A stretch of 45,829 bases of DNA from Robiginitomaculum sp. (GTDB taxonomy: Bacteria; Pseudomonadota; Alphaproteobacteria; Caulobacterales; Maricaulaceae), in assembly GCA_002733385.1 (NCBI GenBank), contig NVVO01000008.1, forward strand, positions 13,686-59,514. The letters run 5' to 3'. Of the stretch, positions 22,343 through 29,786 are shown in pieces; the first letter of the stretch is position 1; every line of letters starts with the position of its first letter. The translations under genes and the position numbers were made by a program. The notes under the pieces were generated by a model, which did not search any database, was not told where the DNA came from, and saw only the letters and a program-made list of their open reading frames with translations.

Positions 22343-22419
22343 GGTTCCGTAGCTCAACTGGATAGAGCACCTGCCTTCTAAGCAGGGGGTTGTAGGTTCA
22401 AGTCCTACCGGAATCGCCA
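22343..22419 (+). tRNA. tRNA-Arg (anticodon TCT), CCA encoded
   Basis: Hand-folded cloverleaf: acceptor GGTTCCG/CGGAATC, D arm GCTC-AACTGGATA-GAGC, anticodon arm CCTGC-CTTCTAA-GCAGG, variable GGGTT, T arm GTAGG-TTCAAGT-CCTAC, discriminator G, then CCA. 77 nt. Confidence 0.9.
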
Positions 22420-23830
22420 TTACTGTAAATGCATCCATATAATCAAATATCTGCCTTATGCTTACCCGAATAATATATCCGTGTCCGCCTCGCCATAATA
22501 TCGCTCCATCTTTAACCTAAATGTTAAAGTGTTGCGACGACCCGTTGAACTCACAGGGAAAAGCCGACGAAAACCAACTCAACAAAAACGGGCAGCATTC
22601 CCCTTACAAACTTTCGCAAAATGCTACGATAATTTCTGATAGTTCCGCAGGCACATCTTCTTGTAAGAAATGCCCGCCGCCTTTGACGATTTGGTGTGGT
22701 TGACCTTTGCAGCCCGGGATGAGTTTTTGGAAAACTTTGTCGGCGTCCTTGGTTATGGGGTCTTGGTCGGAGAAGCTGGTCAGGAAGGGTTTGTCCCACT
22801 TAGAGAGCACTTTCCACGCTTCAACATTGTCCGCCGCACCGTCCATATGGGGGCTGGTCGGAACGAGCGCAGGGAAAATGCGCGCACCGGCTTTATAGCT
22901 CTCATCAGGATAGGGCGCGTTATAGGCGTCTTTGACACCTTCGCCTAAATCGCTCACCGTCGCGCTGTCAATAATGCTGCCGACTGGAAACTCTGGCACA
23001 ACCTTGGCGAATTCACGCCATTTGGTGAACGCTTCGCCAGGGTCGCGGTCACCCGTTGGCAAGAAAGTATTGGCGGCTATGACGCCTGCAAACCGCTTTG
23101 GATATTTCGTGACAAGCCGCAAGCCGAGTAATCCACCCCAGTCTTGGCAAAACAGAACGGAATTGCTCACATCTAACTGTTCAAACCATTCGTTCATCCA
23201 GCAGACATGCCGCGTATAGCTGTAATCCGATGTCTTAGTCGGCTTATCTGATTTCCCAAAACCGATAAGGTCCGGCGCAATAACTCTGTAACCCGCCGCT
23301 GCGACGGCTTTAATCATACGGCGATAAAGAAATGACCAGCTTGGTTCGCCGTGCATCATAATGACAACACGACCATCCCGCGGCCCTGTGTCAACATAGT
23401 GCAGCCGTAGACCATCACCGACCGTCACATAGTTCGGCTTAAAATCATAATCAGGTAAGTTTTTAAATTGGCTATCAGGGGTACGCAAAGCTTTCATGGG
23501 GGATATCTCATTGTTTTCTACCTATTGCACCTTTGCATAATCGAGAGAGTTTGTAGAGTCTAAATTTTCAAGATTGTGGATGTCTGCTATTGGGGACTTT
23601 GAGACATGTAAAATTTGCATACCGACATTAACACACGTCAGGTAAGACGTGTTGTATGCTGCTTATATGGCTGAAGCAAGATTGTAGTTTTGACACATTT
23701 TTAGTCACACTTTGAGAATTGTATAAAATATACTAATAAATACAATAGCTTATACTATGGGTTGTCCGCCTTCTAAGCAGGGGGTTGTAGGTTCAAGTCC
23801 TACCGGAATCGCCATTACTGTAAATGCATC
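22420..23830. mobile_element. islet 1: about 1.4-kb tRNA-Arg-associated integrated remnant with no integrase
   Basis: Bounded by the intact tRNA-Arg and by an exact 63-bp direct repeat: 22373-22435 equals 23768-23830. The repeat covers the anticodon loop through CCA plus 16 nt. The only gene inside is a haloalkane dehalogenase. Confidence 0.6.
22604..23497 (-). CDS. haloalkane dehalogenase (HLD-I, DhlA/DhmA-like alpha/beta hydrolase)
   Basis: 297 aa, alignable by eye along its length with Xanthobacter DhlA. Shared stretches: RTPD..F.NL..Y.F.PNY, HGEPSWSFLYRRMI (DhlA HGEPTWSYLYRKMI), VIAPDLIGFGKSDKP, nucleophile elbow QDWGG, PYPDESYKAGARIFP, and catalytic His in GGHFLQED. Confidence 0.85.
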   Translation of the reverse strand: MKALRTPDSQFKNLPDYDFKPNYVTVGDGLRLHYVDTGPRDGRVVIMMHGEPSWSFLYRRMIKAVAAAGYRVIAPDLIGFGKSDKPTKTSDYSYTRHVCWMNEWFEQLDVSNSVLFCQDWGGLLGLRLVTKYPKRFAGVIAANTFLPTGDRDPGEAFTKWREFAKVVPEFPVGSIIDSATVSDLGEGVKDAYNAPYPDESYKAGARIFPALVPTSPHMDGAADNVEAWKVLSKWDKPFLTSFSDQDPITKDADKVFQKLIPGCKGQPHQIVKGGGHFLQEDVPAELSEIIVAFCESL

Positions 23831-23835
23831 AATAT
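23686..23835 (+). repeat. att-like repeat copy 2: about 80-bp arm plus tRNA-Arg 3' half
   Basis: The core 23768-23830 is identical to 22373-22435. The arm 23686-23767 (agtttgacacat...cacact...ctaataaatacaatagcttatactatgg) is recognisably homologous to 29656-29737. Confidence 0.8.
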
Positions 23836-23937
23836 GTCTGACCTCACACCGATTACCAATATTATGCTGCGTATTCGGTCTGGCGGAGTCCTGAGCCTCG
23901 GGAATCTGTTTTTCAAGTGCGCCACTAACTTAAATTT

Positions 23938-29075: not shown

Positions 29076-29214
29076 AAACACCCTCCACCCATGGACGCAT
29101 TGTATTTACCGACGGGGTCAAAGTGAAGCGCCCTTCCAATTTGACATTTCTTCTCTTAACATAAACTCCATAAATTGCAAGCGGATTTACAAATTCTGTC
29201 ACCGAGAACTAGGC

Positions 29215-29650
29215 GGGAACGTGCCGGACGCAACCAAAAGAGGCGGCTTTCGCCAAAAGCTGGTTGCACATGATCTTTTGGAAATTTTACTGGGCGAGGT
29301 CAATCGCCAACTTGAACAAATGCACATCATCATGACTGAGGGGCGGGCAATATCATCGACGCCACATCAATTGAGGCGTCCTGGTCTGGCTCCGGCAAAG
29401 GCGCAGATGGCGGGCCCAGCCTTGATCCTGATGCAGGCTGGCACGTCAAGTCTACAGCAAAGGCAAGCGCAAACCCACCTATGGTTACTCTGTTCATACC
29501 GGGGCCAACGAAGATGGTTTCATCCATCGCCAGACCGTACTACAGGAAATGCCATGATAACAGCAAGCGCCATACGCTATTGCTGGGCGGCGAGGCCGGC
29601 CTATTACCCGATAAAACTGCTATACGGCGCTTAAAAAGGTCTTTTCTGAT
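29215..29650 (+). pseudogene. IS5-family DDE transposase fragment (truncated at both ends, at least 3 frameshifts)
   Basis: Three frames together give GNVPDATKRGGFRQKL..LLEILLGEVNRQLEQ.....EGRAI / IDATSIEASWSGSGKGADGGPSLDPDAGWHVK / GKRKPTYGYSVHTGANEDGFIHRQTV / HDNSKRHTLLLGGEAGLLPDKTA. This matches the IS5-type core (VPD.T..FR, G.I.DAT.I.A, DPDA.W..K, YGY..H, TTGNAHD, ADK.Y). There are no inverted repeats and no N- or C-terminal regions. Confidence 0.7.
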
Positions 29651-29655
29651 ACGAA

Positions 29656-29786
29656 AGTTTGACACATCTTGAACCACACTCTGTAAAAATAGCTAATAAA
29701 CATGAATAAATACAACAACTTAGAATATGGTCAATCTGCCTTCTAAGCAGGGGGTTGTAGGTTCGAGTCCTACCTAAATCGCCATT
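29656..29786 (+). repeat. att-like repeat copy 3: arm plus degenerate tRNA-Arg 3' half
   Basis: 29736-29786 reads ctgccttctaagcagggggttgtaggttcGagtcctaccTAaatcgccatt, with three mismatches to the tRNA. The arm 29656-29735 is homologous to 23686-23767. It abuts the metC stop codon. Confidence 0.75.

Follow-up and report, generated by a model that had tools for sequence, protein, structure and literature searches.

Two stacked integrase-less islets with homologous att-like arms at the tRNA-Arg(TCT) gene of a marine Robiginitomaculum

The attP site of phage lambda combines a core with arm-type sites on its P and P' arms, and in tRNA genes the crossover falls in the anticodon-loop sublocation. 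CIMEs and their tandem accretion at att sites have been described for elements related to ICESt1 and ICESt3 in Streptococcus thermophilus (PMC5704250). Tandem islands also occur at the ssrA gene of Dehalococcoides, where 15 are without an integration module and are discussed by the authors as possible CIMEs (PMC3146451). Additive flexible genomic islands are found beside tRNA genes in Alteromonas (PMC3698932), and 3' repeats of tRNA-Lys recur at a flexible island of 'Ca. Methylopumilus' (PMC10872708). The tycheposons of Prochlorococcus have as their hallmark a deep-branching tyrosine recombinase together with replication genes (bioRxiv 10.1101/2020.12.28.424599).

The locus described here belongs to a marine Robiginitomaculum sp. 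(assembly GCA_002733385.1; genome of 2.9 Mb, 94.8% complete) and lies in a window, that is, the whole stretch of DNA that was analysed, of 45,829 nt (contig NVVO01000008.1, positions 13,686 to 59,514, forward strand). It is a well-documented example of a known mode of genomic-island building. As read from the sequence, the 7.4 kb between tRNA-Arg(TCT) and metC are on balance probably an additive island laid down by two tyrosine-recombinase integrations, the islets of which now appear to be integrase-less, CIME-like and fixed remnants. The target gene, its displaced parts and the right flank are arranged as follows.

22343–22419, + strand: intact tRNA-Arg(TCT), the attL-side target (ARAGORN; Rfam tRNA model, 69 bits)
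22373–22435, + strand: copy 1, an identity block from the anticodon stem-loop through CCA plus 16 nt of P' (63/63 against 23768–23830)
23768–23830, + strand: copy 2, a displaced 3' part of the tRNA with 16 further nt; it closes islet 1 as attR and opens islet 2 as an attL-like end
29736–29786, + strand: copy 3, a displaced tRNA 3' part and presumably the oldest one (attR; 48/51 against 22371–22421)
29786–30949, − strand: metC (cystathionine beta-lyase; TIGR01324, 453 bits), the conserved right flank B', syntenic throughout the genus

The whole assembly contains one tRNA-Arg(TCT), and ARAGORN and Rfam agree on a single tRNA call at the locus, 22343–22419, besides which the Rfam scan gave a weak tRNA-like match on copy 3 alone. 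A preliminary description of the locus had reported this intact gene with two extra copies of its 3' part, and its coordinates proved correct to the base, with 63 of 63 positions exact in one copy and three mismatches over 51 nt in the other. Copies 2 and 3 start at the anticodon stem, as does every tRNA-half copy in the genome, and end beyond the CCA. Two of the three mismatches in copy 3 break the acceptor stem. The shared sequence after the CCA that had been claimed for copies 1 and 2 is also present (16 nt exact, about 20 of 22 nt overall), whereas copy 3 is followed by the metC flank, the stop codon of metC abutting its tRNA-derived end. The 3' part of the intact tRNA-Arg, from 22373 onwards, would now stem from the last-integrated element.

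An empty site in related genomes had been proposed as a check on integration, and three relatives (G002, G017 and G003) provide it. In these genomes the tRNA abuts metC directly, and their tRNA–metC junction aligns position by position with copy 3 and the flank to its right. By this comparison, the 7.4-kb block is to be regarded as a real insertion. Moreover, the layout proposed for the locus, B-core-P' / P-core-P' / P-core-B', is supported and is found again at the same tRNA in the sister species G016, where two displaced copies are each accompanied by a homologous arm and the cargo, a formamidase and a 536-aa protein of unknown function, is unrelated. G007 and G008 carry one islet each at this tRNA. 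An integrase is missing from all six islets at tRNA-Arg(TCT) in the four species, four of them being single-gene islets and most holding one to three genes; a 7-kb islet at tRNA-Met in G112 is likewise without one. The similarity between islets 1 and 2 stops at the same point, about 16–22 nt past the CCA. These 16–22 nt resemble the 3' tail of the esterase gene that follows tRNA-Arg in other members of the genus, so that chromosomal flank sequence would have travelled with the att site.

The two islets and their contents are listed below.

22420–23767, no strand: islet 1 (repeat spacing 1395 bp), one gene with non-coding ends, missing in the empty-site relatives
22604–23497, − strand: DhlA-type haloalkane dehalogenase of 297 aa, the cargo of islet 1 (NF002043; 453 bits, cut-off 265)
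23831–29735, no strand: islet 2 (repeat spacing 5970 bp)
23938–26193, − strand: VWA-domain protein of 751 aa with choice-of-anchor X and dockerin-like parts, islet 2 (Pfam VWA, NCBIfam NF041940)
26204–27557, − strand: two family-less proteins of about 283–290 aa and 165 aa, islet 2 (gene calls in metagenome contigs)
27609–29081, − strand: autotransporter beta-domain protein of 490 aa, islet 2 (PF03797, E = 3e-14)
29191–29539, + strand: IS5-family transposase relic, islet 2 (PHROG 3598; IS5-family homologues; tblastn frames)

The closest homologues of the dehalogenase (88–90% amino acid identity) lie in core chromosomal contexts, and DNA homology of the gene is confined to the ORF, ending within about 13 nt of its termini. 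These homologues were rejected as the donor of the dehalogenase gene, as they are ordinary chromosomal genes without arms. The two proteins encoded at 26204–27557 have no match in Pfam, NCBIfam or PHROG. The IS5 relic, which adjoins the P arm of islet 2, retains residues 89–205 of 335 across three frames with both ends lost (tblastn), and no second copy was found in the genome. The preliminary description had held that the 7.4 kb are free of integrase, excisionase and mobilisation genes. This stands for recombinases, since 22343–29786 has no match to PF00589 or PF00239 and hence neither a tyrosine nor a serine recombinase; however, the islets are not devoid of mobile-element genes, because 29191–29539 is a frameshifted IS5-family transposase relic. 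The sole integrase-fold gene in the window is that for XerC (9565–10524; TIGR02224, 297 bits), 12 kb upstream in a core-gene context. Cargo orientation is mixed across the islets, and they do not stand out in G+C content.

Within the species the array is constant, and between species it is variable. All metagenome contigs of the species (23/23) are colinear with the window and carry both islets, and no presence polymorphism was seen in any of these contigs or in a diverged strain. This strain differs by 0.15% inside the islets as against 0.7–1.2% in the further upstream flank and metC. A pair of strains shows 1.2% divergence in metC and 14% in cysK, as against 0.1–0.3% in the islets and in the genes closest upstream (HerA, NDUS4).

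One P arm stands ahead of copy 2 and another ahead of copy 3.

23593–23767, + strand: P arm of islet 1, with ACACA boxes at 23692–23697 and 23705–23710 and an A-rich box at 23735–23746
29656–29735, + strand: P arm of islet 2, with boxes at 29661–29666 and 29674–29679 and an A-rich box at 29705–29716

The homology that had been claimed for these arms is borne out by their alignment (23686–23767 against 29656–29735), in which 56 of 83 columns are identical; the global score is 26, compared with −7.1 ± 4.4 in 2000 shuffles (maximum 10), and BLAST within the window returns the pair at E = 5e-6. The islet 1 arm is also 72% identical, across 241 nt, to the islet 1 arm of G016. The common design consists of two ACACA boxes and an A-rich box, with the tRNA core about 56 nt further on, and the length of arm homology is unequal among islets (about 80, 108, and 190 nt or more). 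That the repeats might be a dispersed family, which would have spoken against integration, is contradicted by their distribution. Arm plus core is confined to the single tRNA-Arg locus in the 2.9-Mb genome, and outside this genome it occurs solely in att-like positions beside tRNA halves. The dual-box pattern has 34 matches in the genome, 4 of which lie within 130 nt of a tRNA or tRNA half, against a chance expectation of about 0.03 that is our own rough estimate rather than a tool-computed value; an association by chance is unlikely.

The arm model R1 identified the same design before tRNA-Met 3' halves in other genera, and the box architecture and the box-to-core distance are kept over two tRNA targets and at least five genera. 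Islands of 21–37 kb at tRNA-Met in these other genera have this arm design at their far end and a divergent tyrosine recombinase beside the tRNA. Such arm-closed islands are present in G046 (21.4 kb, 47-nt perfect repeats), G267 (24.8 kb) and G064 (about 37 kb), with a 393-aa divergent tyrosine recombinase following tRNA-Met at the opposite end; the match of the G046 arm to the model is weak (E = 0.006). P' boxes are present in these complete relatives, whereas islets 1 and 2 have none. An arm pattern scan of GTDB species genomes matched G016 and G044 only. G044 was set aside as a source of integrase information, as it holds a remnant: the arm stands at a contig start, its core is only 13 nt long, and the metabolic surroundings are unrelated. 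The same scan of JGI metagenomes gave only chance matches to CA microsatellites, and neither the arm, nor arm plus core, nor the bare tRNA-Arg core had a match in IMG/VR.

A tyrosine integrase beside another copy of the arm, suggested earlier as something to look for, was found nowhere in the genome, where arm copies occur only at the tRNA-Arg locus. The 393-aa recombinase family has no match in this genome or in G016, and the resolvase-type domain of serine recombinases (PF00239) was not found in the 94.8%-complete assembly. Searches beside tRNA-Arg(TCT) yielded no integrase, whether in 15 genomes of the genus, for which about 20 kb of flank were covered, or in other genera, for which the loci spanned 3 kb. 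Likewise, 257 genomes of the family, GTDB (one genome per species), JGI metagenomes and IMG/VR gave no integrase specific for tRNA-Arg(TCT), and the cognate enzyme is therefore deduced from the arm design only. At a tRNA-Asn island of the same genome, an identical 18-mer stands upstream of the start of a 463-aa integrase and before a 24-nt tRNA-Asn copy, and ACACA boxes appear to serve as arm repeats there. This integrase is intact, its own arm boxes GACACAT and GTCACAC are heptamers of the islet 1 arm, and the type is present in 84 of the 257 family genomes; between this genome and G016 it is 96% identical, as against 82–90% for the flanking core genes. Three other genes were considered. A 433-aa integrase on contig C11, with an arm matching the A-rich box of islet 1 at 19 of 21 positions, was rejected because the boxes of its family are AAGTGCA. 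A 394-aa type on C2 was rejected with boxes AGTAAGCA, and the integrase on C5, 95% identical to a G016 gene, is here a truncated C-terminal remnant.

Taken as two tyrosine-recombinase integrations, the island would lie between the tRNA-Arg(TCT) anticodon loop and metC and would have received two related elements in succession. The attP of each would have comprised a P arm of 80 to about 190 nt, with two ACACA-type boxes and an A-rich box, and a tRNA copy reaching from the anticodon stem to the CCA, with some 16–22 nt beyond. Crossover near the anticodon loop would rebuild the tRNA from the copy on the element and push the old 3' part outward. Islet 2, with the VWA and autotransporter genes, probably came first, its displaced copy now decaying, and islet 1, with the dehalogenase, would be the later arrival, its 63-nt repeats being still identical. 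In complete relatives the integrase gene and P' boxes appear directly after the tRNA; this module, probably lost, is missing from both islets, which would therefore be integrase-less remnants with att-site borders, as in CIMEs. With no cognate integrase in the genome, the islets may be taken to be fixed. Movement would come only with an enzyme from a related element, most plausibly one that integrates at the tRNA and co-excises the islets.

The best reading is that the islets are immobile on their own, with movement in trans or in cis allowed for, and between decayed remnants and an integrase supplied in trans the evidence leans towards decay and fixation. Several features tell against this explanation, the lack of any integrase specific for tRNA-Arg(TCT) in the genomes and metagenomes searched among them. 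Six of six islets without an integrase, and mostly compact, are not the obvious outcome of independent random decay, and two independent deletions would not be expected to have the same endpoint, as the common P' boundary would require. The IS5 relic is not by itself an explanation of the integrase loss, since it sits at the P-arm end of islet 2, opposite to the tRNA end at which the complete tRNA-Met islands carry their integrase.

Some of these features suit a different, though rather unlikely, explanation, namely that the islets are non-autonomous by nature. Each would join its cargo to a constant att module (P arm, tRNA core and short P'; about 250 bp in all) and be inserted and excised, in the manner of integron cassettes, by a tyrosine recombinase whose gene lies elsewhere. 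A resident paralogue, such as the tRNA-Asn integrase, or a transient element might supply this enzyme. The short P' boundary common to islets 1 and 2, the lack of an integrase in all six tRNA-Arg(TCT) islets of four species and in the G112 tRNA-Met islet, and the single gene in four of the six are consistent with this view, as are the end of dehalogenase homology about 13 nt from the ORF limits and the intact 463-aa integrase, which has boxes matching the islet 1 heptamers and is shared at 96% identity with G016, the one further genome in which this arm type occurs. However, lambda-type integrases such as lambda Int require P' arm boxes, and the islets are without these, unlike the complete relatives. 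Moreover, box spacing is 5 nt in the islet arm and 3 nt at the tRNA-Asn integrase site, and the cores are unrelated (tRNA-Asn T-loop against tRNA-Arg anticodon loop). The invariance of the islets in all metagenome contigs and in the diverged strain, the mixed cargo orientation and the differing arm lengths also argue against it.

It is improbable that no dedicated recombinase acts now and that the islets spread between strains by homologous recombination with the arms as hitch-hiking relics, although the mosaic neighbourhood (metC 1.2% and cysK 14% against 0.1–0.3% for the islets, HerA and NDUS4) and the esterase-like 16–22 nt carried with the att site as flank sequence would fit such a route. 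Exchange could proceed through conserved flanks, or by a Campbell-type RecA crossover within the 47–63 nt of tRNA homology after transformation or delivery by vesicles or gene transfer agents. Yet 47 nt is short for RecA-dependent exchange, the repeats start at the anticodon stem, a classical integrase sublocation, and an arm architecture and spacing conserved over two tRNAs and at least five genera are unexpected for passive relics. Local duplication of the tRNA 3' half, or dispersed repeats unrelated to integration, would explain the mere existence of the repeats and nothing more; the empty sites in relatives, the foreign cargo, arms homologous between species and the lack of copies elsewhere in the genome have already refuted this reading, which we regard as hardly credible.

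Returning to the preferred reading of two integrations followed by decay, the locus is a clean and fully delimited case of a tRNA gene that gathers single adaptive genes, a haloalkane dehalogenase and a surface-protein operon, in a marine bacterium. It connects integrase-less packets to a recognisable attP arm design, and the pairing of ACACA boxes, together with their fixed distance to the tRNA core, gives a sequence handle with which orphan packets and complete relatives can be found. A more speculative proposal, which we hold to be doubtful, is that units made up of P arm, tRNA core and short P' form the ends, constant from one to the next, of a whole class of non-autonomous cassettes. Tyrosine recombinases beside tRNA genes would move these cassettes in trans or in cis, as an integron-like gene capture anchored at tRNA genes. 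The enzymes would then form large paralogue families, each recognising arm boxes and a tRNA target of its own, the 463-aa type being one of them. If orphan packets were still moved, part of what now goes by the name of additive genomic island would amount to a cassette system whose enzyme could be defined, and this would account for the recurrence of integrase-less arrays at tRNA genes.

Among the known systems, tycheposons share with this locus integration at tRNA genes, tandem elements with partial tRNAs between them, degenerate remnants and island build-up in marine genomes; their hallmark recombinase and replication genes are missing here, so that the locus does not classify as a tycheposon. 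Nor is it organised like an integron. There is no intI with attI, XerC being the only integrase-fold gene in the window, and the borders are tRNA 3' halves with long direct-repeat arms, with cargo in mixed orientation, where an integron would have attC sites (imperfect hairpins) and ORFs in one orientation. The att sites resemble lambda attP in their long arm, in the pair of direct-repeat boxes that keeps a fixed distance to the core and in a block from the anticodon stem that restores the tRNA, but the islets are without P' boxes and the arm boxes are putative binding sites, proposed from their sequence. As in tRNA-borne genomic islands, insertion is in the 3' part of the tRNA with a direct repeat that restores the gene; the integrase that such islands carry beside the att site is missing here.

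The islets are closest to CIMEs in that they are bordered by attL and attR (63-nt and 51-nt repeats, homologous P arms, empty sites), have no integration, excision or transfer genes of their own, the sole mobile-element gene being the IS5 relic, and form a tandem stack at the 3' end of the gene that is targeted. They differ in the tRNA target, in the marine alphaproteobacterial host, in their very small size (1.4 and 6 kb) and in having no ICE or IME partner; cis-mobilisation is putative here, and the complete parent is inferred rather than observed. Derivation by deletion is consistent with the IS5 relic, the unequal arms and the complete tRNA-Met islands, yet no parent at tRNA-Arg(TCT) was found in the genomes searched, and the P' boundary is common to both islets. 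The Dehalococcoides ssrA arrays are likewise divided by 3' repeats of a single-copy RNA gene and have dehalogenation genes in their cargo; however, they have a CcrB-like serine recombinase and a 20-bp repeat (PMC3146451), as opposed to repeats of 47–63 nt, long arms of the tyrosine-integrase type and no PF00239 domain in the 94.8%-complete assembly here. As in the additive islands of Alteromonas and 'Ca. Methylopumilus', variable gene packets are assembled at one tRNA with copies of its 3' part between them, the packets being different in the window, G016, G007 and G008 and absent from G002, G017 and G003. Those islands are described without a family of att arms (PMC3698932, PMC10872708), whereas the conserved P arm at this locus points to one recombination system.

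Two nested insertions are present at the anticodon-to-3' part of the tRNA-Arg(TCT) gene, which is the sole tRNA gene in the window and the single gene for that tRNA in the 2.9-Mb assembly (54 contigs, 94.8% complete). The locus comprises the following features.

22343-22419: intact tRNA-Arg(TCT) gene, its 3' part being copy 1
23768-23830: copy 2 of the tRNA 3' part, identical to 22373-22435 (63/63); repeat spacing across islet 1, 1395 bp
29736-29786: copy 3, matching 22371-22421 at 48/51 positions; repeat spacing across islet 2, 5970 bp
Islet 1 cargo: a single gene, for a DhlA-type haloalkane dehalogenase (NF002043, 453 bits)
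Islet 2 cargo: a VWA protein (751 aa), two proteins without any family match and a 490-aa protein with an autotransporter beta-domain
Islet 2, beside the right arm: an IS5-family transposase relic (residues 89-205 of 335, in three frames)

The preliminary description had placed three tRNA-derived copies at these positions, with homologous arms of approximately 80 bp preceding copies 2 and 3 and a shared sequence following the CCA of copies 1 and 2, and all of this was borne out. Both displaced copies start within the anticodon stem, and copy 3 leads directly into the end of metC; of its three mismatches, two lie in the acceptor-stem strand. The post-CCA sequence of copies 1 and 2 is exact over 16 nt and matches at approximately 20 of 22 nt overall. 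Copy 3 together with 19 nt of its arm (29717-29781) scores 31.8 bits against the Rfam tRNA model (gathering score 29), and in several arms the 20-25 nt nearest the core still faintly resemble the D-arm region of a tRNA. Upstream, the NDUS4-like gene ends in approximately 2.8 head-to-tail repeats (22227-22314) of a 31-bp unit that includes its stop region, and this array stops 30 nt before the tRNA.

The 7.4-kb islet region encodes no tyrosine or serine recombinase, as had been claimed of integrases, although it does hold the transposase relic, the only IS5 trace in the genome. The only integrase-fold gene of the window is XerC, 12 kb upstream in core-gene surroundings. The G+C content of the islets is not distinctive. 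Decay is evident from the IS5 relic, the mismatches of copy 3 and the unequal lengths of the arms. The four genes of islet 2 (23938-29081) share one orientation and resemble a single surface-display operon. Two of its products, both of unknown function, accompany the autotransporter beta-barrel and the VWA protein, the latter having choice-of-anchor X and dockerin-like parts.

Among the genus genomes examined, the left flank (HerA-like ATPase, NDUS4-like gene and tRNA) is kept in 15/15 and the right flank (metC, cysK) is near the tRNA in 13/15, not being found within ∼18 kb in G004 and G015. Empty sites, in which the tRNA directly adjoins metC, were found in three relatives (G002, G017 and G003), and copy 3 with the right flank aligns base for base with their tRNA-metC junctions. 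A 430-aa esterase gene lies between tRNA and metC in several species, and an 84-nt remnant in G005. The design of the window is repeated in the relative G016, where the tRNA and two displaced copies, each copy preceded by a homologous arm, enclose unlike cargo (a formamidase and a 536-aa protein of unknown function), while the packets at this tRNA are MerR/MerT-like in G007 and toxin-antitoxin-like in G008. None of the six islets at tRNA-Arg(TCT) in the window and these three relatives contains an integrase. The tRNA-Arg(TCT)-metC locus is an insertion site and a hotspot.

When the 80-nt arms of the window were aligned alone, 56/83 columns matched (BLAST E = 5e-6), with an alignment score of 26 against -7.1 ± 4.4 for 2000 shuffles. 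The repeats do not form a dispersed family: within the window's genome, arm plus core is confined to the islet locus, and no integrase there adjoins a further copy of the arm. BLAST of 257 genomes of the bacterial family gave clear arm matches in just two, G016 and G044, besides four hits that were short and weak. Matching the exact arm pattern against one genome for each GTDB species returned again only these two, and scans of JGI metagenomes and IMG/VR returned nothing real. The window, G016 and G044 have arms of one common design: a pair of ACACA-type boxes (TGACACA, then T/C/A-CACAC) with a spacing of ∼12-13 nt, ∼27 nt beyond them an A-rich box resembling AATAAATACAA, and the tRNA core 21 nt further. 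Upstream of the core, homology between islet 1 and G016 islet 1 persists for ∼190 nt; in the remaining islets it ends after 80-108 nt. The islets have an attP-type arm in common and lack an integrase. Together, the empty sites, the nested insertions and the arms support the original reading of two successive integrations.

A search with R1, a sequence-only model of the arm, revealed weaker relatives before tRNA-Met 3' halves in other genera, with box spacing as in the window and the second box likewise 56-57 nt away from the core. In G046 such an arm bounds a 21.4-kb island with perfect 47-nt repeats, at the opposite end of which tRNA-Met is followed at once by a 393-aa divergent tyrosine recombinase (PF00589 20 bits, below cut-off; RHTY and HY motifs present). 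The same layout is seen in G267 (24.8 kb) and G064 (∼37 kb), the latter having ACACA boxes also between tRNA and integrase start. A 7-kb islet with such arms is found at tRNA-Met(CAT) in G112 (L134:3108-10176), with no integrase in the islet and no homologue of the 393-aa recombinase. This islet has two tandem arm units before the displaced tRNA half and encodes a TPR protein, an AbfB-domain protein and an OmpA-like barrel as cargo. In G064 (L136:9896-10208) and G069 (L137:904-1218), a complete tRNA-Met gene is followed by an arm and a tRNA-Met 3'-half copy within 237 bp; the G064 arrangement seems to form the distal end of the ∼37-kb island, which starts at a second tRNA-Met gene with integrase.

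The 393-aa family, the candidate source of the cognate enzyme, has no match in the window's genome or G016; three further species of the genus carry it, at tRNA-Leu(CAA) and tRNA-Met. A second family of divergent tyrosine recombinases (460-490 aa), always located 130-210 nt behind a tRNA gene, is present in 84 of the 257 genomes at up to six copies each. Its subfamilies each go with a particular tRNA, namely Asn, Asp, Leu(GAG), Leu(TAA) or Arg(ACG). Neither family was found adjoining tRNA-Arg(TCT). Members of the second family, in the window's genome (C51:53373-54969; L019:592-1983) and in relatives (L176-L204), have repeated boxes just upstream of the start codon. The resident tRNA-Asn integrase has three ACACA boxes there, and an 18-mer from this site recurs unchanged on a different contig, 55 nt before a 24-nt repeat of the 3' end of tRNA-Asn. 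Because of this 18-mer, the paired boxes are, as judged from sequence, arm repeats of tRNA-targeting integrases in the window's genome. The boxes of the tRNA-Asn integrase include both heptamers found in the arm of islet 1 (GACACAT and GTCACAC), but differ from that arm in spacing and adjoin an unrelated core. The box differs from one integrase family to the next: the 433-aa type has AAGTGCA, the 394-aa type AGTAAGCA and the Arg(ACG) integrase GTCACYC. For 4/34 paired-ACACA matches in the genome, the nearest tRNA or tRNA half is no more than 130 nt away, where chance would give ∼0.03 by our own rough estimate, not a tool-computed value. Displaced 3' parts of Thr(GGT) (twice), Gly(GCC), Asn (twice) and Met tRNAs also occur elsewhere in this genome (C19:89547-89592, C11:5262-5306, C44:16314-16358, C38:19697-19742, C2:7650-7696 and C30 about 23777-23800), nearly all beginning at tRNA position 30-31; several tRNAs therefore carry islands or arrays, with the assembly breaking there.

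All 23 metagenome contigs encoding the same flank or cargo proteins, from several metagenomes, are colinear with the window, and no alternative junction was present among them; many end at the tRNA repeat, as expected of a 63-nt repeat. One diverged strain of the species carries both islets in unchanged arrangement, differing by 0.15% in the islets, 0.1-0.3% in the nearest upstream genes (HerA and NDUS4) and ∼0.7% over the upstream flank as a whole; on the right, metC differs by 1.2% and cysK by 14%. Because the contigs are colinear and this strain has both islets, the islets are fixed in the sampled population. Beyond its 14%-diverged cysK, this second strain (L093:1-1569 versus window 30934-34374) has RNase D-like and RluA-like genes in place of the 770-aa gene region, and the cysK side looks like a replacement-type variable spot immediately beside the additive one. 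Many contigs of the window's assembly share identical 98-99-nt ends (e.g. C5:1-99 and C5:9021-9119), probably an assembly-graph artefact (k about 99) rather than biology.

Integration would have been carried out by a tyrosine recombinase of the kind encoded immediately behind a tRNA gene, with islet 2 probably arriving before islet 1 and the module of P' arm plus integrase presumably being lost. Alternatively, the islet units may be non-autonomous cassettes moved in trans or in cis. We consider this unlikely, though well short of negligible, and it is kept alive because every islet seen at tRNA-Arg(TCT) lacks an integrase and most are compact, because islets 1 and 2 lose similarity at an identical point after CCA, and because the 16-22 nt after CCA (22420-22441 and 23815-23836) resemble the 3' tail of an esterase gene. 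These nucleotides are similar to the final codons of an esterase gene of GCE_fung type, which is located downstream of the tRNA in G012, G013, G014 and G008 and is absent from the window's genome; the best case is G008, with a 9/9 match right after the shared 16 nt. This likeness indicates that the att module once copied the chromosomal flank of a Robiginitomaculum host.

Read as successive insertions that have probably lost their integrase, the islets belong to a known kind of island, and the useful additions here are the design of the arm and its link to complete islands. On that reading the islets would match the definition of cis-mobilizable elements (CIMEs) and tandem accretion. The ssrA islands of Dehalococcoides, likewise integrase-less, are a parallel, as are the additive islands of Alteromonas and Methylopumilus with their tRNA repeats.
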